DNA of 64,000 bases from Nitrospinaceae bacterium (GCA_965223665.1 OZ245011.1:928001-992000), one strand, 5' to 3'; shown: positions 26,057-50,985, numbered from the stretch's first letter. The notes: generated from the letters alone by a model not told the origin. Numbers and translations: made by a program.

Positions 26057-26836
26057 TTATCTTTTTAGAACTCTCTTGGAAAAATACTTTTTGGGAATGT
26101 TTACATCGAAATGAATTTCATCAAATTGATAAATAGTTTGGGTATTCTCTTTTAGCATATCTCTAAAAATCATTCGTCTTGGAAATAACCTGCCCTCTAT
26201 TGGAAAATAATCCTTAAATTCTATTTTCTTTAATAACTTGCCACTTTTTGCAAACCGCTCCTCTTTTAAGACAATTTTTTTCTTGGGGTCAGTCCATACT
26301 TTTCGAAATTGATAAGTATATTGCGGCTCTAATGCTGTCAGATCAAGTACCATACTTTGAATACCTTCTATGTTTTCAACTCCAGAAATTTTTGCTGAGT
26401 ATGAAATACTTAATTTTTTATCTTCCAACATATCTTCGTAAGACAAATCACTTCCCATCATGGATTGCCGAAGTAAATGTCCAGCAATCAAAATTTTTCG
26501 ATCAGTTTGGGGAGTATACATCCATAGTTTTCTATCCAGTTTTAACATTTTAGTTCCACGTTCACGGGCAGGAGATTTGTAATAGCTATAAGACTTAACT
26601 ACTCCTTCCATCCAGGTTTCCACTTCCATAGTTCGAACACGGCGTCCATTATCTACGATTAGTTTTCCTTCAATATGCTTTGTGTTTGACCATAAGTTAT
26701 CATCAATTTCTTTTAACAATACTTGGGGATCTATATCTTCGAGTTCATTTGAATAAACAAAGGAAATATTTAAGGAGCTTAAACCTGCAAAAAAAATTAG
26801 AGCCAGCAATAAATTGTAAAAAACCCTTTTCTCCAT
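26057..26836 (-). CDS. LolA-like outer membrane lipoprotein-sorting protein
   Basis: Signal peptide; SPARERGTKML, LWMYTP, QSMMGSDLSYED, GKLLK motifs. Confidence 0.82.
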   Translation of the reverse strand: MEKRVFYNLLLALIFFAGLSSLNISFVYSNELEDIDPQVLLKEIDDNLWSNTKHIEGKLIVDNGRRVRTMEVETWMEGVVKSYSYYKSPARERGTKMLKLDRKLWMYTPQTDRKILIAGHLLRQSMMGSDLSYEDMLEDKKLSISYSAKISGVENIEGIQSMVLDLTALEPQYTYQFRKVWTDPKKKIVLKEERFAKSGKLLKKIEFKDYFPIEGRLFPRRMIFRDMLKENTQTIYQFDEIHFDVNIPKKYFSKRVLKR

Positions 26837-26838
26837 TA

Positions 26839-28140
26839 CTATCCTGCTTCCATTTCGCGAAACAAATTGGCTTCAGACCTTTTAAAAATTGCCAAATTTG
26901 CTATTAAGTTACCAAATACGCTACAGGTAATTCCCGGAATTATTCCAAATAAAAATGCCTTCCAACTCAATCTAGCTCGAACCACATCATTTAACATCAT
27001 TCCCGATTTTTCAAAAAGCGTACCCATGCTAAGCCCAACCTCTTGCAAATAATAAACAATTCCACCACCCAAAAAGCAACCGGTAAGGGTTCCACCTATA
27101 CCTATTAATAATGCCTCACTTGCCATAAAGGTTACTAAACGTTTGTGGGTTTCACCTAAAGCTAATAATAAGCCTACTTCTCCATAGCGGTGAATGCCAT
27201 TTAAAAGTCCTGCGTTCCATAAAACAATGATCATCAAAATTGAGAAAATTCCAACTACAATATTTTTTATTAGTTCAAATTTTCTAGCCAATTCGAACAA
27301 ATTACGTTGGTCTAAAATCGAGAGAATAATTGGGACATCATCTTTTGCCCAACCCTTAGGTGGATTTTTTAAAATGCTTTCCAATTCTGTATCGATTTGA
27401 GCTTTCAAGAAAGCATATTCTTTATATGAGACCTCACCAGGAAGAAATCCCAACCAATCCGTTACTAAATCTTCCATATAAAAAGATTGTTGGGCATCTT
27501 TAATATCTATTATTGCCATTTTTTTATCCATCGCAGCAACACCAAATCGGATAAAACCGGAAACTTTATAATTATCTGTTGCTAATCCTCCATCAAAAGT
27601 TTGTCCCAATAAAGTTAAAGTATCTCCCAATTTCAATTTCAAGCTCTTTGCAAGTTTATATCCAACTAACATTTGATGAGTTTTAGTTGGCAATCTCCCT
27701 TCGGTAATAGAGGACTTTAAATCTAACCGCTCAATTTCTATCGAGTTTTCATCTAATAGATTTAAAGCCATCCCTGTTATTGGGGTTTGATGTAAAGTAT
27801 TTCCCTCGGAATCAGGAACGTCTAAAATAGCAGCCCAACGAATTCTCGGCGTCCATTTCACTCTGGGGTCCGAGTATTTTTCTAGCCAATCTTTAGTTTC
27901 TCTTTGAGCTCCCAAAGCCCTATCCATTGGATTTAAATGCTCTTCATCATAAAAAGGTTTATTAACAAATCGAAGATGACCTGTATCCAAATTGGCAGTT
28001 GTGTTTATCAGCCCCATAAAAACACCTTCCATAAAACCAATTAAATAAATCATCAAGGTCACACCCACCGTAACTACCAAAAATGGAAATAAAGACCTGG
28101 TTTTATCTCTTAGTAATCCTTTTAATATCCAACGAATCAT
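26839..28140 (-). CDS. ABC transporter permease, MacB/LolE/FtsX type
   Basis: TM1, large periplasmic loop, three C-terminal TMs, RYGEVGLLLALG. Confidence 0.85.
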   Translation of the reverse strand: MIRWILKGLLRDKTRSLFPFLVVTVGVTLMIYLIGFMEGVFMGLINTTANLDTGHLRFVNKPFYDEEHLNPMDRALGAQRETKDWLEKYSDPRVKWTPRIRWAAILDVPDSEGNTLHQTPITGMALNLLDENSIEIERLDLKSSITEGRLPTKTHQMLVGYKLAKSLKLKLGDTLTLLGQTFDGGLATDNYKVSGFIRFGVAAMDKKMAIIDIKDAQQSFYMEDLVTDWLGFLPGEVSYKEYAFLKAQIDTELESILKNPPKGWAKDDVPIILSILDQRNLFELARKFELIKNIVVGIFSILMIIVLWNAGLLNGIHRYGEVGLLLALGETHKRLVTFMASEALLIGIGGTLTGCFLGGGIVYYLQEVGLSMGTLFEKSGMMLNDVVRARLSWKAFLFGIIPGITCSVFGNLIANLAIFKRSEANLFREMEAG

Positions 28141-29306
28141 GTGATTCCCTTACCTCTTAAAGCAAGTGTAGGATTGAGCTTAGAAATCTTTTTAACAGGA
28201 ACCCATGAAATCAAAACTATTATTGCAGAGATCACAAAAATCGTGGCTAATACTTCCCAAGCTTTTATCTCTAAAAATATATTTTCTCGCACAGGAATTT
28301 GAGACTCACTTAAATGAGACACATCCAAACCAACACTCTGAAACCACCCCAATATAAAAAAACCAAGGATAAAACCTAATATTATTGCGGCGGTTGCCGC
28401 CAGCACTCCTTCAAAAACAAAAAGCCTCACAATCCGTTGAGGTTTCATTCCCAATGCCATTAAAGTACCAATTTCCTTTTGTCTTTTAAAAATATTTAAA
28501 TACTGTGTATTAAAAACACTTATTCCCGCCAAAAAAATCATGATAAACCAAAGAATCACCGCATAGCGTTTATCCGTGCGAATTATATTTAAAATATCCT
28601 CAGTTAATTCATCGACTGATAAATATTCCAAACCCTCAACAGAACCGAGGAAATTAGCAACACTTACCCAGGTGATCTCTTGAGGACGTCGGGTTAATTG
28701 CCGCAGATGATCCAACCGTAACCACACCACCCCTTCATCAACCCTTGGATTTAACAGTGGAACAACATCCACAATCTCTGCATCCAGAGCATCCACAGCA
28801 CCTAATTTATCCCTCCATTTCAAAACAACAATATCTCCTAAACCGAGCTTTGCCTTATCTGCCATTTTGGATCCTAAAATTATTGGAACCACCCCATCCA
28901 CGCTAACTTTTTTTTCTTTTAATTTAACAAAAGGCAAGTCTAGTAAAGTTTGATCTATATTTATGCCCCGCAACTGTATGGGAAATAATCTTCTGCGAGG
29001 ATAAATTTCACCTTGTAATACTAATACCTCGGCTTTTTCTTTTGGAGAAAGAGACTTCAAAATTTGGGGAATAATTAGAGTGTGATCCTCCCATTCAGTG
29101 GGTGTCAATATATCAAACCCTGGAACTCGATATTGACCTCCCCCAACATCGGTTCGAATCATATTGAGTTGAGCCTGTTTTTGAAATCCATTATATAAAG
29201 AGAGATTAAAAACAATAGCCACCATTGTTAAGGCAATTACAATCACATTCAAAAATGCCCGGGTTCCTTGCCGGTAAAAATTTTTGAAAGCAATGCTTCT
29301 AATCAT
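28137..29306 (-). CDS. ABC transporter permease, MacB/LolE/FtsX type
   Basis: KNFYRQGTR, KRQKEIGTLMALGM, KLNPTLALR; ATGA overlaps with both neighbours. Confidence 0.87.
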   Translation of the reverse strand: MIRSIAFKNFYRQGTRAFLNVIVIALTMVAIVFNLSLYNGFQKQAQLNMIRTDVGGGQYRVPGFDILTPTEWEDHTLIIPQILKSLSPKEKAEVLVLQGEIYPRRRLFPIQLRGINIDQTLLDLPFVKLKEKKVSVDGVVPIILGSKMADKAKLGLGDIVVLKWRDKLGAVDALDAEIVDVVPLLNPRVDEGVVWLRLDHLRQLTRRPQEITWVSVANFLGSVEGLEYLSVDELTEDILNIIRTDKRYAVILWFIMIFLAGISVFNTQYLNIFKRQKEIGTLMALGMKPQRIVRLFVFEGVLAATAAIILGFILGFFILGWFQSVGLDVSHLSESQIPVRENIFLEIKAWEVLATIFVISAIIVLISWVPVKKISKLNPTLALRGKGIT

Positions 29307-30010
29307 CTCAGTTCTCCATTGGGTAATTTTGCCTTATCCCACTTCACGTAACCATCTTCAAGGCGAACTTCTCTACGAATATATTTTGTAACTTTTTCAT
29401 CATGTGTACTGAAAATAAAAGCAGCCCCAAATTTTTGGTTGAGGTCCCTCATTAAATCAAGAATGTGATAAGAGTTTTCAGCATCAAGGTTTGCTGTGGG
29501 TTCGTCCGCCAAAACAATAGAAGGTTTCTTTACTAAAGCTCGTGCAATCGCCACTCTTTGGCATTGTCCCCCAGACAATTCATTAGGTTTTTTATTCGCC
29601 TCCGGAGTCAACCCAACTAAATCAACCAAGGAAAGGACTTGATCCCGAACCTTATTTTCTTGTTCATTATTCAAAAGTAGAGGAAATAAAATATTCTCAT
29701 AAACTGTGTAAACCGGGAGCAAATTATAAGATTGGAAAATAAAACCAATATTAAGCCTGCGCAAATCAGCCAAATCTTCTCGACTCATTAAATTTAAATT
29801 GTCCCCATTAACTTTTATTTCTCCCTGTGTAGGTCTGTCCAAACCCCCAATTAAATTTAATAAAGTAGTTTTTCCGGATCCTGAGGGCCCCACAAAAGAC
29901 ATAAATGCACCTTTTTCAATTTCTAAATCAATCTGGTGCAAAGCCGTGAAGTTTTGTTGGCCCACTTGAAAAACCTTAGATACATTTTTTATTTCTACAA
30001 TTGAAGTCAT
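29303..30010 (-). CDS. ABC transporter ATP-binding protein (LolD-like)
   Basis: GPSGSGKTT, LSGGQCQRVAIARAL, LADEPTANLD, STHD. Confidence 0.93.
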   Translation of the reverse strand: MTSIVEIKNVSKVFQVGQQNFTALHQIDLEIEKGAFMSFVGPSGSGKTTLLNLIGGLDRPTQGEIKVNGDNLNLMSREDLADLRRLNIGFIFQSYNLLPVYTVYENILFPLLLNNEQENKVRDQVLSLVDLVGLTPEANKKPNELSGGQCQRVAIARALVKKPSIVLADEPTANLDAENSYHILDLMRDLNQKFGAAFIFSTHDEKVTKYIRREVRLEDGYVKWDKAKLPNGELR

Positions 30011-30018: not shown

Positions 30019-31149
30019 TTAATAAAATATGATGACAAATAAGCCCACCCGGGATTCGGTACCGGTAACAACTGGACCCTGACGAAACAACCTACCCGTT
30101 AAATTATTTCCATCGATGCTACCGCCAACTTGAGCTTGCAAATAAAGATAGACCTGTTTCCACACGTTATATTCAATTTGGGGAACAAATTGAAAACTCC
30201 TATCTCCAAAATCATAAAATGTAAATAATCTCCAAACAAGATCAATACCAATGGGTTGATCCAGTTGCAAACCCAATTGCTGAATTGTCTTATCCCTTTT
30301 TATGTCCATAACAGCAAAACCGGATTCTTGGGTCCGCAAAAAATACTCAAAAAGAACGTGCAAACCTTGACCCAAATTAAAAGTGTAATCAATTCCAAAA
30401 ACGGTATCAAAACGGAGCGGATCACCCGGACGATTCAATTGGAAATCTAATCGACTCTCATTCCAAAATCCTACCTCTACTTCACCCTTTAAATGATAGC
30501 CTAATTGTAAAAGTTCTTGGTTAAACCCGGACAAAAACCTTAAATCGTTCACAGGATTGTATTGGATAGCAAACCCAGCATCTAGAATTCCAATTTCTCT
30601 TTCACCCCTTAGGCCGAAAATAAAACGATCACTTAAATCTCCAGGAACTATCCACCCTTCAATAAGCGAAGTAGAGGATAAAAAATAAGTACTTCTCAAC
30701 CCATCCACACCTCGAGTAAGCGGAATGATTCCAGAAATAATTCGTGTATCGAAAAACCCTAATGGGCGGTACAAGGCTCCTGATCCAAACAAAATTTGCT
30801 GCCTACCTACACGAACTTTAAAATCTCCTTTTTCCAAACGGATCCAACCACGAAAAATTTCCGCGTCATATTCCTCAGCTATACCGGTTTGTTCACGGAT
30901 TCCACCTGTGTAAAGTAAATCCAAAATAATTTCGTAATCTAAAACGTAATTATTTTTTTCAAAGAGATTTCCTACCAAACCGCTTCTTATTTCTACTTCT
31001 GAATCTAAGTGTGTAAATCCTTGAGGAGGATCAACCAGGACAAATGATCCCGCACGAAATCGTCCTTCAAAATTCCAATCAAACGCTTTAACCGGATTAG
31101 GAAGCAACAAAAGTAAAATACAAAAAGCGAATCGGGAAATGGTGGTCAT
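30019..31149 (-). CDS. Putative outer-membrane beta-barrel protein
   Basis: Signal peptide (VKA/F), RVGRQQILFGSG, GVDGLR, amphipathic strands, C-terminal aromatic FY. Confidence 0.65.
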   Translation of the reverse strand: MTTISRFAFCILLLLLPNPVKAFDWNFEGRFRAGSFVLVDPPQGFTHLDSEVEIRSGLVGNLFEKNNYVLDYEIILDLLYTGGIREQTGIAEEYDAEIFRGWIRLEKGDFKVRVGRQQILFGSGALYRPLGFFDTRIISGIIPLTRGVDGLRSTYFLSSTSLIEGWIVPGDLSDRFIFGLRGEREIGILDAGFAIQYNPVNDLRFLSGFNQELLQLGYHLKGEVEVGFWNESRLDFQLNRPGDPLRFDTVFGIDYTFNLGQGLHVLFEYFLRTQESGFAVMDIKRDKTIQQLGLQLDQPIGIDLVWRLFTFYDFGDRSFQFVPQIEYNVWKQVYLYLQAQVGGSIDGNNLTGRLFRQGPVVTGTESRVGLFVIIFY

Positions 31150-31232: not shown

Positions 31233-31721
31233 TTATAGCATTTTTTTCAAATAAGGTATCAATTGGTCTGCACCCACTCCAGGTGTTCGAGCCCGAATAA
31301 CTCCCTTTTCATCGATAATAATAACCGTAGGCATATCTCGTTGGATATAGGCTGAGTGAATAGTATGGTCAGGATCCAAAAGATACGGGAAATTTACCTT
31401 ACTGGGAAATCCATTTAAATAATCTTCAACATCCTTTTTAGAATCCCCACTGGTATTGATGCCTACAATTACTAATTTATCGGAAGAGATGGAATTTCTA
31501 ACTTTTTCAAACTCCATAGCTTGATTCATACAGGGTACGCAAATATGAAACATCCCCAATAGAACTACTTTTCCCTTTAAACTCTCAAGTGAAATAGAAT
31601 CACCCTTTATAGAGTTAAGTGAAAAGTTTGGCGCGGAATCTCCCGGTTTGGGAGCCCCAGCAAAAGCAGTTTTTGTGAAAATCAAAACAATTATAATGAT
31701 ACTCAATTGGATTTTTTTCAT
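31233..31721 (-). CDS. Exported TlpA/ResA-like thioredoxin-fold redoxin
   Basis: Signal peptide AFA, PGDSAPNFSL, LKGKVVLL, CVPC, cis-Pro loop MPTVIIIDEKG. Confidence 0.8.
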   Translation of the reverse strand: MKKIQLSIIIIVLIFTKTAFAGAPKPGDSAPNFSLNSIKGDSISLESLKGKVVLLGMFHICVPCMNQAMEFEKVRNSISSDKLVIVGINTSGDSKKDVEDYLNGFPSKVNFPYLLDPDHTIHSAYIQRDMPTVIIIDEKGVIRARTPGVGADQLIPYLKKML

Positions 31722-31735
31722 GGAACCCTCTTTTG

Positions 31736-31763
31736 GGAATAAAACTGTTTTTAAAAGCTCTAT
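31736..31763 (+). promoter_or_regulatory. Putative ECF sigma promoter GGAAT-N17-CTCTAT
   Basis: GGGAATAAAAC...CTCTAT upstream of the cupredoxin/cytochrome operon; matches the motifs at 16498 and 42102. Confidence 0.45.
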
Positions 31764-31986
31764 ATAAACATTTGAATTAATTCTAAATCAGCAAGAAGGT
31801 ATTTTAAAACTAAAATATTGTTTTTTTGAATTAAAAACTTTTAATCAAATATTAACACAGGGTTAATACCAAAATACTATAATTTCATTGAATATCAGTT
31901 CCTGAGCAAACCAGGGCAAATGCCTGAAACACTGAATTTTTAAGGCCGTAAGTCTTTCTTGCACTTGTTAGGGGATTGATATATTA

Positions 31987-32718
31987 TTGGCAAGATTTTC
32001 CTTAAACTTCGTGATTTTAAAAATGTTTAGAATATTTTTCGTTACATTTTTCTTATTATGCTTGGTCGGAAGTCCCGTCAGCGCTGGAAATTTAAAAGGG
32101 AAAATAAATTTCAGTGGCAACGTTCCCCCTATTCCTATGCATAAAACAGGTAAATTCAGTAAAGCATGTGGGCCAGAAATAGCTGGAGAGGAGCTTCTTG
32201 TTGAAAACAAAGGAGTTAAAAATACAGTTCTGTGGTTAACAGGACGGAAGGCCAAAAAAGTTAAGGCTGATCCAAAGGAATATGTTTTGGATCAAAGTAA
32301 ATGTCAATATCATCCGCATGTTACCGTTATGGTTAAGGAATCCGAATTATTAATTCGGACAAGTGATCCTATAAATCATAATATACATACTTATTCTTTT
32401 GACAATGATCCAATAAATATTATGTTTGTGCCTGGACAGGAACATAGTCAAGAGTTTGAAGAAGCCGAAGTGGTAAAAGTAGAGTGCGATTTGCATTCAT
32501 GGATGCATGCCTGGATTGTAGTTACCCCGAATCCACTTAATGCTTTGACCGATAAAGAAGGAAATTATGAAATAAATAATATTCCGCCCGGAAAATATAC
32601 TTTAAATATTTGGCACGAGGCTTTCGGAGAAGCTAGTCAAAAAATAGAAATAAACGATGGGGATACTGAGTTTAATTTTGACCTTATTTCTATCAATCCC
32701 CAAGTTTCCAAAAAATAA
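31987..32718 (+). CDS. Secreted cupredoxin-like plus carboxypeptidase-regulatory-like protein
   Basis: Probable start ATG 32023; signal peptide VSA; HNIHTY and ECDLHSWM type-1 Cu-like ligand set; IPPGKYTLNIWHE. Confidence 0.75.
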   Translation: MARFSLNFVILKMFRIFFVTFFLLCLVGSPVSAGNLKGKINFSGNVPPIPMHKTGKFSKACGPEIAGEELLVENKGVKNTVLWLTGRKAKKVKADPKEYVLDQSKCQYHPHVTVMVKESELLIRTSDPINHNIHTYSFDNDPINIMFVPGQEHSQEFEEAEVVKVECDLHSWMHAWIVVTPNPLNALTDKEGNYEINNIPPGKYTLNIWHEAFGEASQKIEINDGDTEFNFDLISINPQVSKK

Positions 32719-32768: not shown

Positions 32769-33605
32769 ATGAAAAAGTCGATTCATTTATTAATCACTCT
32801 ACTTTCTGTACTTGCGTTTAATTTGTTTCAGGAGACAGAGGCTTACCAGGAAGTCGAAGTAAAAAATGGTGGAACTCTTCAAGGTAAAGCAAGTATGTCC
32901 GGACAAACGCCCCAACCCAGGGTTTATCATTTAGTGCTATTTCCAAATTTAGACCTCTGTGCAGAAGTGGATACCGATGATGAAATGAACCGAGTTTTAT
33001 TTGATTTTATTTCAGATGATAAAAAAGGTTTAAAAGATGTAGTCATTGCTCTTGAACATGTCGATGCGGGAAAACCTTTTAATAAAAAACCCATTAATAT
33101 TCTTTCAGAAAACTGCAAGTTTTATCCGGATGTAAATATTGTTAGACAAGGGGAATCGTTTTTTGTCGATAATCAAGATGCAGTAATGCACAACAGTCAG
33201 GTATATCAAGCAGAACGCGGAAAGATTATTTTAAACATCCCTATCCCAGCTGAAGAAGTTTCTGATGGGAAAGTAACTTTCCAAAAAGATTATAAAATTT
33301 TTCAAATGATTTGTGGAATGCATGAGTTTATGCAAACCTGGGGATATAGAGTGCAAAACCCTTATTATTTCAAAACGGGAGTCGATGGCAATTTTAAAAT
33401 TGACAATATTCCTCCAGGAGAATACCAAGTAACTGCCTGGCATTATTTAATGAAGCCACAAAAGAAAAAAATAAAAATAGAACCAAACTCTGTTATAAAT
33501 TTAGAATTTAGCTTTAATGGCGATAAGGTAATTCGACCTCTTTATGAAACTATTAAATCGGGTCGAATTAAAAAAGATGCTAGAGTTCCAGGTGGCATTC
33601 ACTAA
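32769..33605 (+). CDS. Secreted cupredoxin-like plus carboxypeptidase-regulatory-like protein
   Basis: Signal peptide; GGTLQGK; MHNSQVY; ICGMHEFM; NPYYF..IPPGEYQVTAWHY. Confidence 0.75.
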   Translation: MKKSIHLLITLLSVLAFNLFQETEAYQEVEVKNGGTLQGKASMSGQTPQPRVYHLVLFPNLDLCAEVDTDDEMNRVLFDFISDDKKGLKDVVIALEHVDAGKPFNKKPINILSENCKFYPDVNIVRQGESFFVDNQDAVMHNSQVYQAERGKIILNIPIPAEEVSDGKVTFQKDYKIFQMICGMHEFMQTWGYRVQNPYYFKTGVDGNFKIDNIPPGEYQVTAWHYLMKPQKKKIKIEPNSVINLEFSFNGDKVIRPLYETIKSGRIKKDARVPGGIH

Positions 33606-42953: not shown

Positions 42954-43041
42954 AAATAAAATTATATAAATCATAAAAAAAATGAATCCTGCTTAAAAGT
43001 AGGACATCTTATCCTAAATAATTAAGAAATATACCTAAAGT

Positions 43042-43533
43042 ATGGAAGAACAAAAACAAATTCTGGATCAAGAAATTTGGGAAATTTCCCTTAGAATTGA
43101 AAGAGATGGAAGAGCTTTTTATAAGGAACTTGAAAAGCTAATTGATGAACCCACCTTAAAAAGCTTTATTCATCAAATGGCTAATGAAGAGTCTAAACAC
43201 ATAAAGCTTTGCAAATCCATGCTAGAAAAGAAAAAAGGCAAGGTTTACGGTTGGGAAGACAAGCAGGATGTCAAAGAATTCATTAATTCCCAATTTCAAA
43301 CTGACATTTTCCCTAAGTTAAACCAGATAAAAGAGTTTTCTTCGAAGTTAGAAAATTTGCAAAAAGCTTTTGAATTTGCGCTGGAAGCTGAAAAAGTCTC
43401 AGCCGAGTTTTATGCTTTATTAGGTGAATACTGTGAAGACTTTGAAGCTAAAACCACTTTAGCCCTTTTAGAACAAGCTGAACAAGACCATATCAAACAA
43501 GTAATTGAAATCAGAAATAAATTCCCTTCCTAA
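43042..43533 (+). CDS. Rubrerythrin/ferritin-like diiron protein
   Basis: IERDGRAFY..EESKH and AEKVSAEFY..AEQDH paired E/ExxH motifs; no rubredoxin CxxC. Confidence 0.85.
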   Translation: MEEQKQILDQEIWEISLRIERDGRAFYKELEKLIDEPTLKSFIHQMANEESKHIKLCKSMLEKKKGKVYGWEDKQDVKEFINSQFQTDIFPKLNQIKEFSSKLENLQKAFEFALEAEKVSAEFYALLGEYCEDFEAKTTLALLEQAEQDHIKQVIEIRNKFPS

Positions 43534-43563
43534 TTACTCCCAAATCCTTTCTAATATTCCACC

Positions 43564-43603
43564 AAAAAAAAACAGCACCGGGTCTTTAAGAACCCGATGC
43601 TGT
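43564..43603 (-). terminator. Intrinsic terminator between convergent genes
   Basis: Minus strand ACAGCATCGGGT-loop-ACCCGGTGCTGT followed by a T run. Confidence 0.8.
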
Positions 43604-43619
43604 AATAAATTACCCTTAC

Positions 43620-44438
43620 TTACTTAACAGCTAACTCAAAGTTTTGTTTAGCATCTGCACCACCAGCAACCGTCACTTCAGAAGTAACTTCGCCAATATA
43701 AGGATGCCATGCCGTTACTTTGTATTTACCAGCAGGAATGTTATCAATTTTAAAAGACCCATCCGCGCCAGTCACAGCATAATATGGATTCCATACTATT
43801 CGAGCATCCGCTTCCATGAAGTTATGCTGATCACACTGTAAGAAAAAATGCTTATCTTTTTTCTTTTTAAAACGCTTGAAACTTTTGGTCACGTCCGCAA
43901 CATCACCTTTACTTGGCAATGGCTTATTGAACAATGTTTTTCGGTTTGCACCTACAACCGAATATCCATGAGGATTATGAAGAATATCAGGGTCATGGTT
44001 TGTGATTGTCAATAATCCTTCTTTCATACCTTTAGGGGTTTTGCGAACAATGGATACTTTAGGAAAAATATCGCAGGTTTTGAAATCAAAATTATTGGTT
44101 GCTGTATCCCATTTTTTACCCTTTTCAATATTTTCAATGAATACCACGGTACCATTGAGTTTTCCCCCAGGAGCTACAACTTTTACTCGTGGACGAATTC
44201 CACCTTCTTTAGTATCTGGGTGGGTTGAGCAAAACTCAGAATTTTTTCCTTTATTCAAATCTTCCATGATTGGTGCTGGTGGATCTCCTTTTAAGGTAAC
44301 CGCCCCGCTGATAGACCCTCCACCACTAACATCGCCTTCTTCATACTTAGCTTTTTTAGCAAAAGCCGCAGTACTAAATCCAATGGCAACGCAGATAACT
44401 AAAAAACCAAATAGTACTTTTTTAATCATCCCACACAT
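43620..44438 (-). CDS. Secreted cupredoxin-like plus carboxypeptidase-regulatory-like protein
   Basis: Signal peptide AFA; GGSISGAV; LHNPHGY; QCDQHNFM; NPYYAVT..IPAGKYKVTAWHP. Confidence 0.78.
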   Translation of the reverse strand: MCGMIKKVLFGFLVICVAIGFSTAAFAKKAKYEEGDVSGGGSISGAVTLKGDPPAPIMEDLNKGKNSEFCSTHPDTKEGGIRPRVKVVAPGGKLNGTVVFIENIEKGKKWDTATNNFDFKTCDIFPKVSIVRKTPKGMKEGLLTITNHDPDILHNPHGYSVVGANRKTLFNKPLPSKGDVADVTKSFKRFKKKKDKHFFLQCDQHNFMEADARIVWNPYYAVTGADGSFKIDNIPAGKYKVTAWHPYIGEVTSEVTVAGGADAKQNFELAVK

Positions 44439-44520
44439 CTCCTTCCAAACAATGATTTATGAAAATTGTCACACCAAAGTGAAACATTAGAAAACATTTT
44501 AAATAAAAGGACTCCTTTAT

Positions 44521-44563
44521 AAAAATAAAACAAAGGGGCCTCCCTCACTTCAAGAGGCCCCTT
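44521..44563 (-). terminator. Intrinsic terminator after multicopper oxidase copy B
   Basis: AAGGGGCCTC ... GAGGCCCCTT 10-bp stem followed on the minus strand by TGTTTTATTTTT. Confidence 0.75.
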
Positions 44564-44592
44564 ATAAACAATTTTTTAATACGGATCAACTA

Positions 44593-47500
44593 TTATTTCA
44601 TCGACAAGCGATTATCATCCGCACGAGAAGCAGATTTGAGGCCGTCCGGAGTGGCACCACCCAATGGTAAGATCGATCGATCTCCCTGAGGTAATACCTT
44701 TAAATAACCCCACTGACCAGCCTGCTGGTAAGGTGTCCGTGCATTCAACCATAAATACGTGCCTGGTACATGATACGTACCGCCTGCACCTTTTAGCAAG
44801 AATGCCTGGATGTACTCACCTCCGCCAAACTCTTCAACATCAATCATATCAGAACCTTCCTGGTTCAAATGCCGACGCCACTGATGACCATCCAAATTAA
44901 ACATTTGGTTCTGCTCATTATGTACGCCAAACACATTGATCATTACCTTGTCTCCTGCATGCGCTTTCAATGTCGGCGTTGCAGGCTCATTATCCGCAGC
45001 AACACAAGGTGTAAATATATTACCTAATTCACATCCTTCGTCTTCACGGTAAGTCCAAGGTTCTAATCGATAATTTACACCTGTCAATCCTGCTACATTC
45101 TGCAGGTAAGGCATAAATGAGGTACCAATGATATTGTCTTCATCCTGAAAATATAATGCAAAATCACGATAATTATCGATATGTGCATTTTCAGGATAAG
45201 ACTTATCAATGATCACGTCTGCTTTCCAGGAATTCCCAAGACTGATGTCTTTACCTGTCTCAGGATCTCGGTATACAGAACCACGTGGACCAATGATAAT
45301 TCCACCATACAAACCATCACGTACGTTCGTGACCAGGTCACCAAAATCCCAGATTAAACCGGCATTGATGTTGTAATCCGGATGTGCGTAGAACGTGTAC
45401 GTTTTGGATTTACCCGGTGCTACCGTTTGATCTCCAGGATTATTACCTACATTAATTCCTTGAGAATCTAACGGATTAAACGCCATGTTGTTCACATGCA
45501 GTGAAGTCTTACCTTTCTTCAAGCGATTGGTCAATTTCACTTTCACACAATCACCAATATTCGCTCGAAGGGTTAACGGATGCGGCATAGCTCCATCATC
45601 CGCGGCTTTCTTGACTTCATCCTCAAGTACAAATACTTTTCCTTCAGGATTCGCTAACAACAACTTTCGCTCAAAGTCCACTTCGATAATATCTTCTGCA
45701 TTCGGATTGAACTTCAAGGCTTTGTTGATCGCTACCACACTAAAGTTCTTGGTAGGTGCACCTTTTGGACATACTTCTTTCTTATTAGGGAGAATACCGC
45801 GAGTTCCCTCCAAAGGCTTCAGGTCTTTTTGGGCTTTATCATAAACCCGTAAAATACCCCAGCTACCTTCAGAAAGATGCGATGTTCGACCATCATAGAA
45901 CAGATAATCACCAGCCATCTGCTGATAACCACCTGCAGTCGTGGCCATATCATAACGCTCTGCGATACCTATATGAATTGCATTAGTCACACGGGAATCT
46001 CGATCATAACGTTCTGGACGATATCCATGACCTGATAAAACAAAGGTATGAGTTTCGTTCATCATTCCGTGTAACAACCTGAACACAACCGTATCTCCAA
46101 GATACGCTCTCACTAAAGGAGTATCCGGGTCTCGGTGTGCTTTACTGCTGAATAACTGAGACGCATCTGCATTAGCCTTCAACCTTGTAGCCAAGGAAGC
46201 AGCCCGGAAATTAAATCCGCCTCCAGTAGTATGCGTTCCACCATTCAAATACGGGAAGGCCACTTCTAACATATCCTTCGGCATTTGAAAGGAGATAGAC
46301 TGACCCGCAGCAATCGCATTCTCTCGGCTCAAACCGGGAGGATTACCTTGAGTCACTAATTGTGCTGTGTGCGGTACTGTGTCATGCAACTGCACAACGA
46401 TTTCACGGAAACTACCGTTTCGTCCATAAGCAATCGGTTCCGTGCCATGAATGTCAGCAACAGGTCCACTTCGAATGGGTTTTCCTGTTTTTGGATCATG
46501 GTAGGTCGACCCCCAGGGCTCAACAATAGTGGAACCAATTCCGCCGTGCGGCCAGGTGGTCGCACCAAATGCATGGTCATGCCAGAACACAAGTCCCACA
46601 TCAGCATCCACCCACCAGCGATAACGAACATACTCAGCCGTTACAATTTGACCGGCCTTATGAGCATGAGTCATGCCTTCGGTAAAAGTGATTTTGTATT
46701 TACCGTCTTTCGCCGGATTCTTATTAGGATCCGGTTCCATCTTTCCAATCCAGCGAGCGTCTTTACCATTCGGCACTTCAATACCAACGATAATATCTGC
46801 ACCTACATGGAAAGGATTTGCATGATGAGCCATCTCGATTTCAATGGTCTTATCACCCGGTTTCGTGTCTTTCAACAAATGTGCATTCATCGGAACCGGC
46901 ATACCTACATGATGGCCATTCTTTTCTTTCTTGGTAAATTGCTTATAAGAACGCATGGACTGGTCATAAGAAAATCCAGAAATAACCCCATCCGATGCCT
47001 GGTTATCAAACTGGAAGAAATGAGGATGAATGTTCACCTTAGACATTTGGAAATTGGTGAAATCATCATCATTCCATTCACTGGATAAAAGCACATCCAC
47101 ACAGTCATATACATTAGCTCTAATAACTAACGGATAGGCTTTCTTCGGATCTGCTTTTACGGCCGCCATTTCCTCATCAATAACGTAAATCAAACCGTAT
47201 TTATCGATGATAGGGGGACTTCCTTTATAACCACCCTGAAGTTCAATGGGTGTATTGATGAAATGCAAATTATACTGCTTTCGACCAGCACCTGGAGGAC
47301 AAAGACTCCAGCGACCCTGTTCACCAGGCTTCGCAGGCGAACTGTTTTCCATTGTCGCATCGGAGCGTCCACTACCGGATTCAGTCGAAGTAATAATTTT
47401 ATTATCACTTAAATAATGAAATGGTTCTAACCAGGGAGCTCCACCATGATGACGCGCAAAGGGAACTCGCTTCCCAAAATGCGGGGTCATGTGTGGCCAC

Positions 47501-49506
47501 GCTAACTTACCATTCGTCGGATGAAACTGAATCGAATGACGTTTTCCAGGATGGGGAGATTTGTACTTCGCCATCGGATAAGTCGCCTCACGTTCTGATA
47601 ACGCTCGATTCTTATCCCAGGCATAATCCCATACCGTTCCGTCATAAGCCAATATTTGACCCTTTTCATCATCCGTATGACCAGGCTTGCCTTGCGGTGG
47701 CAACATCGATCTTACCCAATCCTTGATGTTCACCACTGGAATCTCCTGATCCCACTTGCTGGCTCCACTGTCTACAATTTTGAACTTCTTGCCGTACCAG
47801 TTCATCGTTTTACCCACTAACTTGTCTGAACTGATACCTTTAGGAATGTAGCCTTTTCGATCCGGTAACTCCTGCAACGGACGCATAACATCAGTACTGC
47901 CAAATGGATAGTTTCCATCCTGCAGAGTGTTGTACACACGCCAGTATCCCCACATACCCGCAACATAGTGATGCGCTACGTGACAATGGAACAGGAAGTC
48001 CCCTGCCAATTTCTGACACAATCCGGATCCACACTCTGTTTCCAGATCCAATACTTCAGCCGGACCAATTACTTCCACGTCTACACGGTCCGTAGTCGTT
48101 CGAACCACAGGATACTTCACAGGACCGTCATAGGCCGCTGTTATTAAATTCTCAATCCCTGGCTCACGTTTCGGTGAACGAGTCCAACGAATGGTTCCTC
48201 CATGCGGATGATGCGAATGGAACACTTCACCGCCACCATGAATTAACCGAAATTTAGCTGGATCGCCCATGTAAGAACGAGGAATGGTTGTGGGAACATC
48301 CGCAAACGTATAAGAACTGTATGCTAAAGATTCATCTTCATAGTGAAACATTTTTTCTTGAACTGCCAAATTGTTAATTCCAAAGGGTTCACTACGATAG
48401 TTCATCGCACGTGCTGAAGGACGATACGCATCGGTTTGTGGATCCCGTTGTGGAATCATTTCTCCGTGACGGTTCAAAGGACGAAAAGATTCATCCCCAA
48501 CTTCATGATAGAAAAGATTAAATTCACGGAAATCTTTAGCATCATCATTTGCGATCATGGCCATCCAGCCACTCGCAAGTGGTCCACCAGTCCATGGATC
48601 TAAATAATATGATCCTCGTGGTTCAACAATGAAGGCACCAATCAAACCTAATGCGGATGGATCACGACCTGCGTGACTCAAAATTAAATGCGCACCTTCT
48701 TGTTCATCAATCGGAATAAACCATTCAAAATTTTGTGTCTCACCAGATGGAACATTAGCTCCCTTAGAGGCAGCAGTATCAGGCAAACCTGAATCGCTAA
48801 TGATCATCGCAGAACCATTAACCTGGAATCCTGCGTCTTCATCCTCTAATTGGTTCGTAAATTTAATTCGAACACAATCCCCTTGATTGGCACGAATTAC
48901 CAATGGTTGAATCGTATCCCCCTGCAAACCCGTGGAAACTACGCCAGGATCCAGTTCGTCTTCCCGAGCCGCAGCATTGGCCTCTTCATCTTTACGAACC
49001 TGTTCAATGTCCTTTGTCAAAACATACATATAACCTGGGAAGTAATCTCCCCATTGGTTCAATGTGATTTCAACATTGATAGCTGAGATATCGTAAGTTT
49101 TGGTTGGAACTCCAGCCGGGCAATGACCACCCTTAAAAACCTTGTCAGAGGCTTCGGAAGGCCCTAACAAGTATCCCTGCTGTAGCTGATGCGCTGCCCA
49201 TGAATCGTGAAATCCACCTCCGGCTGAGGCAGGGCTGGCATGTTCTTTCAACTTTCCTTTCAAGCGGTCCATCAAAGAACGAAAGGTCTTATTCAATCGA
49301 TCCTGATCCCCTTGTTTTCCCTCCATCATCTCTTCGTAGTTGATTTGATTTTCCAACTTCTCCAACCACGCTGGACGATCTGCTGCCGACCCATGCTTAT
49401 GCATACTCGATGCCGCATACGCCGGAATTACTCCTAACCCAAAGGTTAGTACTAGAGCAATAAATTGCCCCATCCATTTTTTGTTACCAGCCATTTGAAC
49501 CTCCAT
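44593..49506 (-). CDS. Giant multicopper oxidase, six-domain MnxG-like (copy B)
   Basis: Same copper motifs as copy A; probable start ATG 49494 after GGAGG; signal peptide AYA. Confidence 0.85.
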   Translation of the reverse strand: MEVQMAGNKKWMGQFIALVLTFGLGVIPAYAASSMHKHGSAADRPAWLEKLENQINYEEMMEGKQGDQDRLNKTFRSLMDRLKGKLKEHASPASAGGGFHDSWAAHQLQQGYLLGPSEASDKVFKGGHCPAGVPTKTYDISAINVEITLNQWGDYFPGYMYVLTKDIEQVRKDEEANAAAREDELDPGVVSTGLQGDTIQPLVIRANQGDCVRIKFTNQLEDEDAGFQVNGSAMIISDSGLPDTAASKGANVPSGETQNFEWFIPIDEQEGAHLILSHAGRDPSALGLIGAFIVEPRGSYYLDPWTGGPLASGWMAMIANDDAKDFREFNLFYHEVGDESFRPLNRHGEMIPQRDPQTDAYRPSARAMNYRSEPFGINNLAVQEKMFHYEDESLAYSSYTFADVPTTIPRSYMGDPAKFRLIHGGGEVFHSHHPHGGTIRWTRSPKREPGIENLITAAYDGPVKYPVVRTTTDRVDVEVIGPAEVLDLETECGSGLCQKLAGDFLFHCHVAHHYVAGMWGYWRVYNTLQDGNYPFGSTDVMRPLQELPDRKGYIPKGISSDKLVGKTMNWYGKKFKIVDSGASKWDQEIPVVNIKDWVRSMLPPQGKPGHTDDEKGQILAYDGTVWDYAWDKNRALSEREATYPMAKYKSPHPGKRHSIQFHPTNGKLAWPHMTPHFGKRVPFARHHGGAPWLEPFHYLSDNKIITSTESGSGRSDATMENSSPAKPGEQGRWSLCPPGAGRKQYNLHFINTPIELQGGYKGSPPIIDKYGLIYVIDEEMAAVKADPKKAYPLVIRANVYDCVDVLLSSEWNDDDFTNFQMSKVNIHPHFFQFDNQASDGVISGFSYDQSMRSYKQFTKKEKNGHHVGMPVPMNAHLLKDTKPGDKTIEIEMAHHANPFHVGADIIVGIEVPNGKDARWIGKMEPDPNKNPAKDGKYKITFTEGMTHAHKAGQIVTAEYVRYRWWVDADVGLVFWHDHAFGATTWPHGGIGSTIVEPWGSTYHDPKTGKPIRSGPVADIHGTEPIAYGRNGSFREIVVQLHDTVPHTAQLVTQGNPPGLSRENAIAAGQSISFQMPKDMLEVAFPYLNGGTHTTGGGFNFRAASLATRLKANADASQLFSSKAHRDPDTPLVRAYLGDTVVFRLLHGMMNETHTFVLSGHGYRPERYDRDSRVTNAIHIGIAERYDMATTAGGYQQMAGDYLFYDGRTSHLSEGSWGILRVYDKAQKDLKPLEGTRGILPNKKEVCPKGAPTKNFSVVAINKALKFNPNAEDIIEVDFERKLLLANPEGKVFVLEDEVKKAADDGAMPHPLTLRANIGDCVKVKLTNRLKKGKTSLHVNNMAFNPLDSQGINVGNNPGDQTVAPGKSKTYTFYAHPDYNINAGLIWDFGDLVTNVRDGLYGGIIIGPRGSVYRDPETGKDISLGNSWKADVIIDKSYPENAHIDNYRDFALYFQDEDNIIGTSFMPYLQNVAGLTGVNYRLEPWTYREDEGCELGNIFTPCVAADNEPATPTLKAHAGDKVMINVFGVHNEQNQMFNLDGHQWRRHLNQEGSDMIDVEEFGGGEYIQAFLLKGAGGTYHVPGTYLWLNARTPYQQAGQWGYLKVLPQGDRSILPLGGATPDGLKSASRADDNRLSMK
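44597..49381. repeat. 4785-bp direct repeat, copy 2 (partner 36991-41775)
   Basis: Near-identical to copy 1; alternative-frame ORFs are duplicated (40298/47904 identical, 37879/45485 nearly identical). Confidence 0.9.
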
Positions 49507-49617
49507 AGATTTTTTGGCTAAAAAAAAAATTGGGCTGTAAACAAAAACTCCAAAACACTAAAAGTTTTCGTCTACAATTAAATATGATTAATTCATAACT
49601 GAACTAAATCCTTATAA

Positions 49618-50985
49618 TTATTTATTCGGTGCCAGACTTAATAAAAGGGACTCCTCTCCCCGTTCTATTCTGACGTTAAGATTCTCCTGATTTAATTGGG
49701 TCAATATTTCATCGACTTCATTTTTTTTCGATATTTTCTTGCCATTTATATATTTGATAATATCCCCTTCTTTTAATCCCCCTCTTTCGGCGGAACTTTC
49801 AGGAAATACTTGAACAACAATCACACCAATTGTTTCTTGAGTTTTAAATTTTTCAACCAAACCCGGATCTATATTAGCTAACTGGGCTCCCAGAGAAGTA
49901 ACAGCGTTTCTTTGAATAGCTGCAATTTGGTTTTTTGGATTTTCTTTCTTTCCCAATTTGACCGAAACGGTTTTTATTTCACCTTTTCTTAAAATATCAA
50001 TTTGAACGGATTGCCCCGGGGAAATATTTCCAATCAGCTTAATCATGGAGCCTGGGGAGTTTACCTTAATCCCACCGATTTTTAAAATGATATCTCCAAT
50101 TTTAATCCCAGCATTTGAAGCAGGTTGATCCTTAAATACTGAATTGACTAATACACCTTCTTTCGAATCTATATTATCCCTTTTGGCAATATTTTCAGGA
50201 ATAAAGTCGATCCCAACCCCCAACCAACCCCTTTGCACTTCTCCGGTTTCAATTATCTGGTTTGAAACGTTTCTTACAACATTTGAAGGAATCGAAAACC
50301 CAATACTTTGGGCATAATGAATAATGGCGGTATTTATCCCAATAATTTCGCCTCGAATATTTAAAAGGGGTCCGCCACTGTTTCCCGGGTTAATGGATGC
50401 ATCAGTTTGAATAAAATCTTCATACCTTGAAATATTAATATTTTCCCTGTTCAAACCACTTATTACACCCATACTTAAAGTATCGTGAAGTCCATAGGGA
50501 TTTCCTATTGCAACAACCAACTGTCCTACTTTCAATTTTGAAGAATCGCCCAACTTTACCTGGGGTAATGGATCTTCTGAATCAACCTTTATAACAGCTA
50601 AATCTGTCTCTTCATCGCTACCTAAAACACGGCCAATCAATTCTTTTCCCTTATATAAAGTTACGAGAATCTTTTCAGCCTTTTTTACAACGTGACTGTT
50701 GGTAACGATATAACCATTACGCCCATCAATAATAACCCCGGCACCCGCATTTGTTGAACGGCCCTTAGGGGTCTCTCCCTGCTTAAGAATTGACGGGGAA
50801 GGTGGAACATAGGGTGAAATATTAACTACAGCTGGTAACGTATGCTCAGCAAGACCCACCAATCCGATTTCTATTTCTTCTAAAATCTTTAGCCCGTTTG
50901 CCGAGTGTTCCGCAAAAGAACGAGAGGACAACATGGACAGGACCAGGACCCCAAGAAATGCAAAAAGAAATTTTCGGCAACTCAT
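49618..50985 (-). CDS. degP: DegP/HtrA periplasmic serine protease with two PDZ domains
   Basis: VTNSHVV, TDLAVIK, AIGNPYGL, FIQTDASINPGNSGGPL, two PDZ domains. Confidence 0.9.
   Translation of the reverse strand: MSCRKFLFAFLGVLVLSMLSSRSFAEHSANGLKILEEIEIGLVGLAEHTLPAVVNISPYVPPSPSILKQGETPKGRSTNAGAGVIIDGRNGYIVTNSHVVKKAEKILVTLYKGKELIGRVLGSDEETDLAVIKVDSEDPLPQVKLGDSSKLKVGQLVVAIGNPYGLHDTLSMGVISGLNRENINISRYEDFIQTDASINPGNSGGPLLNIRGEIIGINTAIIHYAQSIGFSIPSNVVRNVSNQIIETGEVQRGWLGVGIDFIPENIAKRDNIDSKEGVLVNSVFKDQPASNAGIKIGDIILKIGGIKVNSPGSMIKLIGNISPGQSVQIDILRKGEIKTVSVKLGKKENPKNQIAAIQRNAVTSLGAQLANIDPGLVEKFKTQETIGVIVVQVFPESSAERGGLKEGDIIKYINGKKISKKNEVDEILTQLNQENLNVRIERGEESLLLSLAPNK

Follow-up and report, generated by a model that had tools for sequence, protein, structure and literature searches.

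Nitrospinae account for much of ocean nitrite oxidation, and the "manganese oxidase" label attached to their giant multicopper oxidase in databases and papers feeds models that couple the nitrogen and manganese cycles. The closest described gene cluster is that of Nitrospina gracilis 3/211 and Nitrospira defluvii (Lücker et al. 2013; PMC3578206). In the sections of that paper drawn on here, the oxidase is taken to be a putative Mn oxidase that would defend against ROS, and it is mentioned alongside cupredoxin-like proteins, cytochromes c and alt_NxrC copies having one to three heme c sites. A Pacific metaproteome published in 2022 (PMC9477243) ranked the oxidase as the second most abundant Nitrospinae oxidoreductase; its protein abundance was negatively correlated with O2, co-varied with NxrA in the oxygen-deficient zone and, in oxygenated South Pacific water, was correlated with catalase. 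The oxidase family was also reported in all Manganitrophaceae (Yu et al. 2022; PMC9040806). Later papers, including PMC9477243, call its Mn-oxidizing function unverified for these lineages, and our literature search found no enzyme assay of the family.

Here we describe a locus from a genome that was placed in Nitrospinaceae by comparison with its relatives (Table 1). The window is the whole 64,000-nucleotide stretch of DNA that was analyzed, and positions are counted from its first letter. All genes named in a preliminary description of this DNA are real ORFs with the family matches given there. Its interpretation stood as regards MnxG-type oxidases, an NxrC-like protein, a redox chain and ECF control; the word "undescribed" had to be dropped, since the same oxidase and its neighbors already appear in the sections of Lücker et al. 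cited above. The locus is another copy of the gene cluster noted in 2013.

Table 1. Genes and sequence elements of the oxidase locus (window coordinates).
Feature	Position	Strand	Basis
LolA_like	26057-26836	-	Pfam
FtsX/MacB permease	26839-28140	-	Pfam
FtsX/MacB permease	28137-29306	-	Pfam
ABC ATPase	29303-30010	-	Pfam
376-aa porin-like protein	30019-31149	-	no Pfam match
Exported TlpA/ResA-like thiol-disulfide oxidoreductase, CVPC	31233-31721	-	AhpC/TSA and Redoxin Pfam
ECF-type promoter-like site upstream of Cup1-Cup2-altNxrC, genus-specific	31732-31766	+	PWM 17.2
Cup1, secreted amicyanin-like type-1 copper protein with C-terminal CarboxypepD_reg domain	31987-32718	+	C-x2-H-x2-M loop
Cup2, Cup1/Cup3 paralog with C-terminal CarboxypepD_reg domain	32769-33605	+	
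alt-NxrC-type protein, 636 aa, three heme c sites (CxxCH) and EB_dh (heme b) domain	33642-35552	+	
Cyt424, triheme cytochrome c, 424 aa	35553-36827	-	three CxxCH; Pfam and NCBIfam matches
Strong terminator-like hairpin directly after MCO1	36935-36964	-	13 pairs, then T-run
MCO1, MnxG-like six-domain multicopper oxidase, 1641 aa, ECF-linked copy	36984-41909	-	
RpoE-like promoter motif, GGGAATAA-N16-TCT, 162 nt upstream of MCO1	42072-42106	-	
ECF sigma factor, Sigma70_r2 and r4	42219-42770	-	PF04542, PF08281
RpoE-like motif, 17-nt spacer, aimed at the rubrerythrin-like gene	42917-42950	+	
Rubrerythrin/ferritin-like di-iron protein, cytoplasmic, 163 aa	43042-43533	+	PF02915, E 5e-13
Strong terminator after Cup3	43572-43603	-	
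Cup3, cupredoxin partner directly downstream of MCO2, C-terminal CarboxypepD_reg domain	43620-44438	-	
MCO2, 1637 aa, copy in the ancestral DegP-MCO-Cup position	44593-49506	-	
DegP/HtrA protease-chaperone upstream of MCO2	49618-50985	-	Pfam

Gene content and conservation of the locus

Our synteny comparison showed that the core gene order recurs in many Nitrospinota genomes, and the arrangement is therefore beyond chance. The oxidase was present in 28 of 28 high-quality relatives and is orthologous to N. gracilis P0018 (81% identity, 98% of the query covered). The preliminary description had treated some 25 kb of genes as a single system. Comparison of gene neighborhoods across Nitrospinota and Nitrospirota upheld this for the oxidase-Cup pair, which is common to both phyla, and found the remaining genes confined to Nitrospinota. 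Cup, an amicyanin-like cupredoxin, is the only gene family that the oxidase loci of the two phyla have in common, with 98 members across 56 of 76 oxidase loci; its gene lies on the same strand and no more than 3.5 kb downstream of the oxidase at every Nitrospirota locus (33/33) and at 17 of 25 Nitrospinota loci. Within Nitrospinota, and there only, conservation extends to the cytochromes, redoxin, DegP, ECF sigma factor and di-iron protein. One clade (L025, L027, L031) has a solitary oxidase that lacks any Cup or cytochrome gene up to 10 kb away. Based on these observations, the locus may tentatively be taken as a conserved periplasmic redox module in the form that it has in Nitrospinaceae.

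There is somewhat better than an even chance that the listed genes are not one system and that the true unit is limited to the oxidase with Cup, plus the adjacent heme proteins and the ECF unit in Nitrospinota; general synteny would then have kept the ABC/LolA/porin block, and possibly DegP, beside it as unrelated neighbors. Synteny in Nitrospinota is just as strong for clearly unrelated genes on the other flank, namely a PAPS reductase gene and four more ORFs, and the ABC/LolA/porin genes and DegP lack a preceding ECF motif and are absent from Nitrospirota oxidase loci. Against such a division, DegP lies immediately upstream of the oxidase in 22 Nitrospinota loci, and in L013, L016, L026 and L028, the only loci in which the block is syntenic, the redoxin gene has the porin-ABC-FtsX genes behind it in the same orientation. 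The redoxin gene itself adjoins Cup1 in 11 Nitrospinota loci. The Atlas clusters nearest to the 376-aa protein are named porin or alginate-export, which is a lead only. The ABC/LolA/porin genes are probably mere neighbors of the oxidase module.

MCO1 and MCO2 are 94% identical (1,641 and 1,637 aa), and both are predicted to be secreted by way of a Sec signal peptide. Their closest solved relative is Bacillus MnxG (PDB 9bxa_A, E 1.3e-94), to whose domains 1-6 residues 141-554, 773-854, 960-1020 and 1099-1420 were aligned; the Cu-oxidase domain model PF07732 matched at 66.4 and 61.6 bits against a cut-off of 21. The ligand motifs of a type-1 copper and a trinuclear cluster (HxxHxH, HCHxxxHxxxxM, HxH and HxH) are complete, and H433, H436, H438, H510, C511, H512, H516, M521, H830, H832, H979 and H981 are invariant in an alignment of 11 sequences from Nitrospinota and Nitrospirota. 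As judged from these sequences, each MCO is predicted to hold one type-1 copper and one trinuclear copper cluster, with one full ligand set. Assignment to the MnxG type is borne out by the homology to 9bxa and by ligand motifs that follow MnxG's domain 2/domain 3 order. Since all eight trinuclear-cluster histidines are among the residues invariant in both phyla, O2 reduction at the oxidase appears to have been kept.

No curated cupredoxin model matches Cup1-3; Pfam gives CarboxypepD_reg-type matches only and NCBIfam gives nothing. The cupredoxin fold was seen in an AF2 model (pLDDT 93.2), for which Foldseek returned NirK cupredoxin domains, amicyanin and plastocyanin at target-normalized TM-scores of 0.6-0.7. 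His154, Cys202, His205 and Met208 are invariant across 81 aligned relatives, and C..H..M is present in 94 of the 98 family members, the other four being truncated ORFs. The predicted fold and the invariant H, C, H and M ligands agree with the previous listing of three cupredoxin-like proteins and mark Cup as a genuine type-1 copper carrier. The same genome encodes a Cup3 paralog (75% identical) fused to a cytochrome c domain and a further one (66% identical) downstream of a monoheme cytochrome c gene.

The 636-aa protein matches PF13442, PF00034 and PF09459 (EB_dh; 62 bits, cut-off 33.3), and its residues 174-389 match PDB 6h5l_B (E 4e-34). It also matches TIGR03477 at 104.9 bits, under that model's cut-off of 169.85. 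These Pfam and NCBIfam matches are in line with its description as an NxrC-like heme b/heme c protein. Among Nitrospinota oxidase loci, Cyt424 occurs in 11 and alt-NxrC in 18. Cytochromes are absent at Nitrospirota oxidase loci, so the heme link is lineage-specific. The window contains no molybdopterin gene. It lies at 0.93-0.99 Mb, with nxrA at 3.00 Mb on contig C1, which places nxrABC 2 Mb away; no Cup paralog stands beside nxrABC in this genome. nxrA is also distant from the oxidase in five other genomes (G002, G003, G004, G011, G024).

ECF sigma unit and promoter motifs

The ECF sigma gene has no adjacent anti-sigma gene, there being no candidate ORF of at least 25 aa between it and MCO1. 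GGAATAA-N16-TCT is found upstream of the ECF-linked oxidase in all 15 ECF-containing loci, and the motif precedes the di-iron gene in 13 of them; the 11 Nitrospinota loci that lack an ECF gene have no site of at least 13 bits. When the genome was ranked with a PWM whose training set excluded this genome and its genus, the MCO1 promoter motif came second among 8.7 million positions. The site upstream of Cup1 came eighth, and its equivalent in a same-genus relative (L013) scores 25.6. Other top matches genome-wide precede unrelated genes.

Dedicated regulation by the ECF sigma factor, as first proposed, is thus backed by a conserved promoter motif confined to ECF-carrying loci. Because the motif is kept at the ECF-linked oxidase and the di-iron gene and is missing in ECF-less loci, MCO1 may be under stress control, and this copy seems to be driven by the neighboring stress sigma factor. 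The second oxidase copy, by our prediction, arose by tandem duplication and is read from an RpoE-like promoter that the adjacent ECF sigma factor recognizes. Transcription of MCO1 along with the cytoplasmic di-iron protein would make it a stress-inducible copy. Strong hairpins follow both oxidase genes, and co-transcription of the oxidases with Cup3 or Cyt424 is therefore not assured.

Possible functions of the oxidase

The likeliest mechanism, to which we give a probability of about 0.4, is one in which electrons would pass from c-type hemes to the type-1 copper of Cup, then to the T1 site of the oxidase and on to its trinuclear cluster, where O2 would be reduced to water. In Nitrospinaceae, the donor hemes would be those of Cyt424 and alt-NxrC, possibly fed by the periplasmic nitrite oxidoreductase. 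Such a chain would form a soluble branch in the periplasm that reduces O2 and serves O2 and ROS management, not proton pumping. Cup is proposed as an obligate partner because a one-electron carrier would be superfluous for a plain metal oxidase and because Cup is the sole cross-phylum family. Electron exchange between Cup and cytochrome c is suggested by the Cup3 paralogs that are fused to or follow a cytochrome c, and by the presence of Cyt424 and alt-NxrC at the loci. The cytochrome c, cupredoxin and oxidase chain of the preliminary description is the best fit to this gene linkage.

Manganese oxidation is a close rival. The oxidases could in fact oxidize Mn(II)/Mn(III), as the cited part of Lücker et al. 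proposes, with Mn(III) or Mn oxides scavenging superoxide in organisms without SOD and catalase, and with Cup serving as accessory subunits or copper-delivery factors in a role analogous to MnxE/F. MnxG being the nearest solved relative speaks for this, as do the presence of the family in all Manganitrophaceae (PMC9040806; here L043, L047 and L054), the correlation with catalase in oxygenated water (PMC9477243) and the apparent co-regulation of the ECF-driven copy with a rubrerythrin-like protein, which would fit an oxidative-stress regulon. However, the oxidase reaches 115.8 bits against a cut-off of 3100 for the NCBIfam MnxG equivalog NF041487, no MnxE/F-like neighbors were recognized in a search that went by Pfam and NCBIfam names, and a direct Mn(II):O2 oxidase needs neither an obligate type-1 copper carrier nor linked cytochromes. 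We consider this function possible but on the whole unlikely. A different flow of electrons, from Mn(II) or Fe(II) through the oxidase to Cup and cytochromes c and then to a membrane terminal oxidase, would conserve energy as a lithotrophic route instead of having the oxidase itself reduce O2. Yu et al. (PMC9040806) raise such a requirement for Manganitrophaceae, Cup is linked to cytochromes, and a bd-like oxidase gene, which we saw in Nitrospirales loci alone, is a few kb distant from the oxidase in L081, L083, L085 and L086. The eight invariant histidines argue that O2 reduction was retained, and growth of Nitrospina on metals was not found in the literature consulted; this route is improbable.

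Ammonia oxidizers have a multicopper oxidase-cytochrome c-NirK cluster, which offers an analog for a module acting on nitrogen oxides, for example in NO or hydroxylamine oxidation. Such a role would agree with the presence of the oxidase in nitrifiers and with the way it varies together with NxrA where oxygen is low (PMC9477243). Yet the oxidase is also present in Manganitrophaceae and in all four genomes of one Nitrospinota genus (g9; 91-96% complete) in which NxrA was found in none, and Pfam detected no nirK or other N-oxide gene at the locus, making such a role very improbable.

Several observations stand beside the mechanism with O2 as acceptor. Field abundance is inversely related to O2 and tracks NxrA in the oxygen-deficient zone (PMC9477243), which favors it. 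On the other side are the homology to MnxG, which points to Mn(II) oxidation, and the two oxidase copies of Manganitrophus, an Mn(II) lithotroph. The solitary-oxidase clade, the lineage-specific heme link, the 2-Mb distance to nxrABC, the hairpins after both oxidases and the motif matches before unrelated genes also count against it.

A wider extension of this O2-reducing mechanism, doubtful as a whole, is that the oxidase-cupredoxin pair is a soluble copper periplasmic terminal oxidase (a cupredoxin/cytochrome c:O2 oxidoreductase) that aerobic chemolithoautotrophs in Nitrospinota and Nitrospirota have in common. Alt-NxrC and the triheme cytochrome would connect it to nitrite oxidation in Nitrospinaceae. 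By consuming O2 in the periplasm, it would protect O2-sensitive metabolism and deal with ROS when O2 is very low, and the additional ECF-inducible copy would be for stress. If true, this would account for the abundance of the protein in the uppermost part of oxygen-deficient zones, and the "MnxG" of ocean proteomes would then be something other than a manganese oxidase. With the Cup partner, the Cup-cytochrome c fusion and linkage, and the stress-sigma promoter, the substrate question becomes one of assays with defined partners.

Comparison with known systems

The Mnx complex of Bacillus sp. PL-12/SG-1 (MnxG with MnxE3F3; PDB 9bxa) shares six cupredoxin domains with the MCOs, with homology over most of their length and the same placement of type-1 copper and half of the trinuclear cluster in domain 2 and the remainder in domain 3. 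Relative to MnxG, the MCOs are about 400 residues longer, the additional sequence comprising some 140 aa at the N terminus and insertions at roughly 555-770 and 855-960; they carry a Sec signal peptide, whereas the Bacillus complex is located in the spore coat, and their predicted partner is a 27-30 kDa cupredoxin/beta-sandwich protein, no MnxE/F being recognized among the neighbors by Pfam or NCBIfam name. Cup has the fold of amicyanin and other single-domain type-1 blue copper carriers (PDB 1id2, 2gb2), the C-x2-H-x2-M ligand loop and the upstream His. It differs in its fused C-terminal CarboxypepD_reg-like beta-sandwich, an extra conserved Cys pair (C70, C122), the lack of a Pfam cupredoxin match and a gene that adjoins a giant oxidase, where those of amicyanin-type carriers adjoin a dehydrogenase. 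The 636-aa protein shares its C-terminal EB_dh domain with NxrC/EbdC heme b gamma subunits of the type II DMSO-reductase family (PDB 7b04_C, 2ivf_C); in contrast to them it has three N-terminal c-type heme domains, a TIGR03477 score below cut-off and a gene that is not beside one for a molybdoenzyme.

RpoE-type ECF promoters of E. coli read GGAACTT-N16-TCTGA. The motifs described here are similar in their -35 GGAAT and -10 TCT elements, 16 nt apart, but the sigma gene lacks a neighboring anti-sigma gene, and the motif is conserved at genes for a copper oxidase and a di-iron protein, not at genes for envelope-folding factors.

In the N. gracilis 3/211 and N. defluvii cluster, as far as the cited sections of PMC3578206 describe it, we find an orthologous oxidase with the same export prediction and the same kinds of genes around it (cupredoxin-like, cytochromes c, alt_NxrC with heme c sites). 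Relative to that account, the present window has no bd-like oxidase gene and nxrABC is 2 Mb away from the locus; the oxidase is present in two tandem copies, and an ECF sigma/di-iron unit with an ECF-type promoter is inserted.

Gene content and distribution of the oxidase

ORF listing and family scans recovered every component that the preliminary description had named between 26057 and 50985 (see table), with export signals judged by eye from sequence. The genes to the left of 26057 (SLOG/LOG-like, DUF58, MoxR, UDG and MscS) are unrelated, and a PAPS reductase gene is found on the right. Across 36001-50000, the oxidase genes have a G+C of 0.40-0.46, as against 0.32-0.37 around them (2-kb windows); either amino-acid constraint, the protein being very conserved, or a past transfer could account for the difference. 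Elsewhere, the genome (G000, with contig C1) has eight EB_dh domain matches, representing several NxrC-like paralogues, and four of these have N-terminal cytochrome c regions resembling that of the alternative NxrC (alt-NxrC) in the window.

Coordinates and properties of the features discussed (window positions unless a locus or contig is named)
Feature	Position	Strand	Description
Cluster	26057-50985		
LolA_like protein			Family scan
Two FtsX/MacB permeases			Family scan
ABC ATPase			Family scan
376-aa protein			No Pfam match; nearest Atlas clusters named porin or alginate-export proteins (lead only)
Exported redoxin			CVPC motif
Cup1, Cup2, Cup3			Secreted; CarboxypepD_reg domain at C-terminal end
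alt-NxrC			636 aa; three CxxCH motifs and EB_dh domain
Cyt424			424 aa; triheme cytochrome c
MCO1 (ECF-linked oxidase)	36984-41909	-	1641 aa; 94% identity to MCO2
MCO2 (DegP-linked oxidase)	44593-49506	-	1637 aa
ECF sigma factor			Family scan
Di-iron protein			163 aa; rubrerythrin-like
DegP			Family scan
Motif site, MCO1	42072-42106		
Motif site upstream of Cup1	31732-31766		
Five other high-scoring motif sites	G000:C1 4062916, 824545, 2201694, 1570275, 1167943		Intergenic; downstream genes encode cNMP-PAS-GGDEF-EAL, Asp/Arg beta-hydroxylase, GGDEF, 4Fe-4S and DUF4197 proteins
TPR-Cup fusion (outside the cluster)	16691-18064	+	457 aa; TPR repeats and Cup-like cupredoxin/CarboxypepD_reg
Cytochrome-Cup fusion	L097 6331-8127; G000:C1 ~2.884-2.886 Mb	-	598 aa; peptidoglycan-binding domain, monoheme cytochrome c, Cup3-like cupredoxin
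Cytochrome c gene, then Cup3-like gene	L096 6302-7636; G000:C1 ~2.625-2.627 Mb	+	Monoheme cytochrome c; a 548-aa ankyrin-repeat protein follows

The best database relatives of the oxidase come from Nitrospinaceae (Nitronauta litoralis, 84%; N. gracilis, 81%; Nitrohelix, 79%), and full-length identity is 62% with Manganitrophus and 57-59% with Nitrospira. One complete set of copper ligands is present (H433/H436/H438; H510-C511-H512, H516 and M521; H830/H832; H979/H981), and 11 aligned sequences drawn from both phyla keep it without change. Of 41 relatives examined, 37 carry the oxidase, as do all 28 high-quality genomes. In a phylum sample of 74 Nitrospinota genomes at least 85% complete, it was present in 59: 58 of 63 genomes in families f1-f4 (G000 not counted) and 0 of 10 in families f5-f9. 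NxrA, the nitrite oxidoreductase subunit, was found in 40 of the 74. A strict tie between the oxidase and nitrite oxidation was rejected because Manganitrophaceae carry the oxidase, and because all four genomes of genus g9 (91-96% complete) have it while none has NxrA. MAG assemblies often miss NxrA, and its absences elsewhere are therefore weak evidence. Two short contigs (L019 and L056) assigned to MAGs of a Poseidoniales archaeon and of Acidobacteriota also carry a Nitrospinota-type oxidase (79-83% identity), which is probably due to mis-binning.

Gene neighborhoods in Nitrospinota and Nitrospirota

To establish which genes travel with the oxidase, we compared 76 loci around its homologues in species-representative genomes, using tblastn and all-against-all clustering of 1038 ORFs. 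The sole family common to Nitrospinota and Nitrospirota loci was Cup, the cupredoxin/CarboxypepD_reg proteins, with 98 members in 56 of the 76 loci. Where at least 1.5 kb was available downstream of the oxidase, tblastn placed a same-strand Cup gene no more than 3.5 kb away in 33 of 33 Nitrospirota loci and 17 of 25 Nitrospinota loci. Five of the eight exceptions contain the ECF-linked copy only (L017, L018, L026, L028 and L040), and the other three are solitary second copies from one clade (L025, L027 and L031). Several other families are confined to Nitrospinota: DegP (22 loci), alt-NxrC (18), PAPS reductase (17), ECF (13), di-iron protein (12), Cyt424 (11) and redoxin (11). Synteny within Nitrospinota does not establish membership of DegP or of the ABC, LolA and porin genes, since flanking genes that clearly have no relation to the module show just as much synteny.

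Single-copy loci (L016, L020 and L022) share the layout DegP > MCO > Cup3 > Cyt424 > < alt-NxrC < Cup2 < Cup1, followed by redoxin > porin-like > ABC > FtsX. Relative to this arrangement, the window has an additional tandem unit (MCO, Cup3, an oppositely oriented di-iron gene and ECF), and L015 has this unit twice. A FastTree phylogeny of 39 oxidases, with three Nitrospirota sequences as root and read without support values, placed ECF-linked and DegP-linked copies together by lineage and not by linkage type (the window, L013, L014, L015, L029 and L058). Given the conserved ECF unit, this grouping suggests either gene conversion between the tandem copies (concerted evolution) or repeated duplication.

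Nitrospirales loci contain FGE-sulfatase-like, HEAT-repeat, DUF255 thioredoxin and further Cup genes, with a bd-like oxidase a few kb on. In four of them (L071, L075, L076 and L077), the FGE-sulfatase-like gene separates the oxidase from the Cup genes, and the HEAT-repeat and DUF255 thioredoxin genes follow. These genes are candidate maturation factors; they are not the set seen in Nitrospinota. Manganitrophaceae loci contain sigma-54 activator, TPR and hemerythrin genes.

The ECF-associated promoter motif

All 15 intergenic regions of ECF-containing loci carry the motif GGGAATAA-N16-TCT, situated between the ECF gene and the oxidase that follows it, with GAGAAT in one locus. It also occurred on the opposite strand, facing the di-iron gene, in 13 of the 15. 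A weight matrix was built from 23 sites with this genome and its same-genus relative left out; among 8.7 million genome positions, the MCO1 site ranked 2 and the site upstream of Cup1 ranked 8. Both types of site are present in the same-genus relative (L013), and no site of at least 13 bits was found in 11 Nitrospinota loci without an ECF gene. The sigma-ward orientation that would indicate ECF autoregulation was not seen in ECF loci, save for one weak site in L058, and no anti-sigma ORF was found after the sigma gene. Strong hairpins follow MCO1, MCO2 and Cup3. A sigma-70 promoter scan returned 47 sites against 51.6 expected and thus gave no information. The five other high-scoring sites in this genome may be regulon members or chance matches.

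Proposed electron flow and relation to described systems

The AF2 model of Cup3 (pLDDT 93.2) matched NirK cupredoxin domains, amicyanin, a Nitrosopumilus cupredoxin, plastocyanin and azurin, and PDB sequence searches with Cup2 and Cup3 gave only chance-level matches. H154, C202, H205 and M208, as well as C122 and D149, are invariant in 81 aligned Cup members; the C..H..M pattern is present in 94 of 98, and the remaining four are truncated ORFs. Three further Cup paralogues occur in this genome beyond Cup1-3. One Cup paralogue is fused to a cytochrome c (its cupredoxin part is 75% identical to Cup3) and another directly follows a cytochrome c gene (66% identity to Cup3). These two arrangements tie the family to heme c partners and argue that Cup proteins are electron carriers and not structural subunits dedicated to the oxidase. 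The third paralogue, the TPR-Cup fusion, is a fourth Cup member of the window and has the ligand loop C-x2-H-x2-L, with Leu replacing the axial Met. Co-prediction of a single oxidase fragment (residues 330-1030) with Cup3 (29-272) scored 0.00, which is uninformative either way.

The electron chain proposed in the preliminary description remains reasonable. Electrons would pass from heme c to Cup, then to the type-1 copper site of the oxidase, its trinuclear cluster and finally O2. The alt-NxrC possibly joins this chain to a periplasmic nitrite oxidoreductase, the role may be O2 or ROS management, and the second oxidase copy would be stress-inducible. To this reading as a whole we assign a probability of about 0.4. 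Direct Mn(II) oxidation by the oxidase, as Lücker et al. proposed, is somewhat unlikely. The oxidase does match the solved Bacillus MnxG (9bxa_A) across its domains (E 1.3e-94); it differs in an extra N-terminal extension of ~140 aa and insertions at ~555-770 and ~855-960, and its score against the NCBIfam MnxG equivalog (115.8 bits) falls below the cut-off of 3100. PMC11995701 and bioRxiv 2024.12.25.630300 state that a demonstration of Mn oxidation in the families concerned is still lacking. The chain could also be pictured as carrying electrons outward for lithotrophy, which we consider improbable. N-oxide chemistry seems very improbable. A position of the cluster, or of the Cup paralogues, beside nxrABC in this genome was rejected by genome positions.

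The system was initially put forward as a candidate undescribed one, but the same cluster already appears in passages of Lücker et al. 2013 (PMC3578206). There, a 'putative multicopper oxidase' like the Mn oxidase of Bacillus SG-1, highly conserved in Nitrospira, is grouped as a conserved gene set together with cupredoxin-like proteins, cytochromes c, a bd-like oxidase and an alternative NxrC, the copies of which have a heme b domain and 1-3 heme c sites; the proposed role is Mn(III)-based ROS defense. Passages of PMC9477243 rank 'MnxG' as the no. 2 Nitrospinae oxidoreductase by abundance in central Pacific metaproteomes, with a maximum where the oxygen-deficient zone begins at its top, and describe its function as unconfirmed. 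Two 'novel MCOs' in all Manganitrophaceae are likewise mentioned in Yu et al. 2022 (PMC9040806). A full-text literature search, limited to article text, found no biochemical characterization of the oxidase. Taken together, the cluster is another member of a known, biochemically uncharacterized cluster, to which our analysis makes modest additions: an oxidase-cupredoxin rule that spans two phyla, the fusion of a cytochrome c to a Cup protein, and the ECF promoter.
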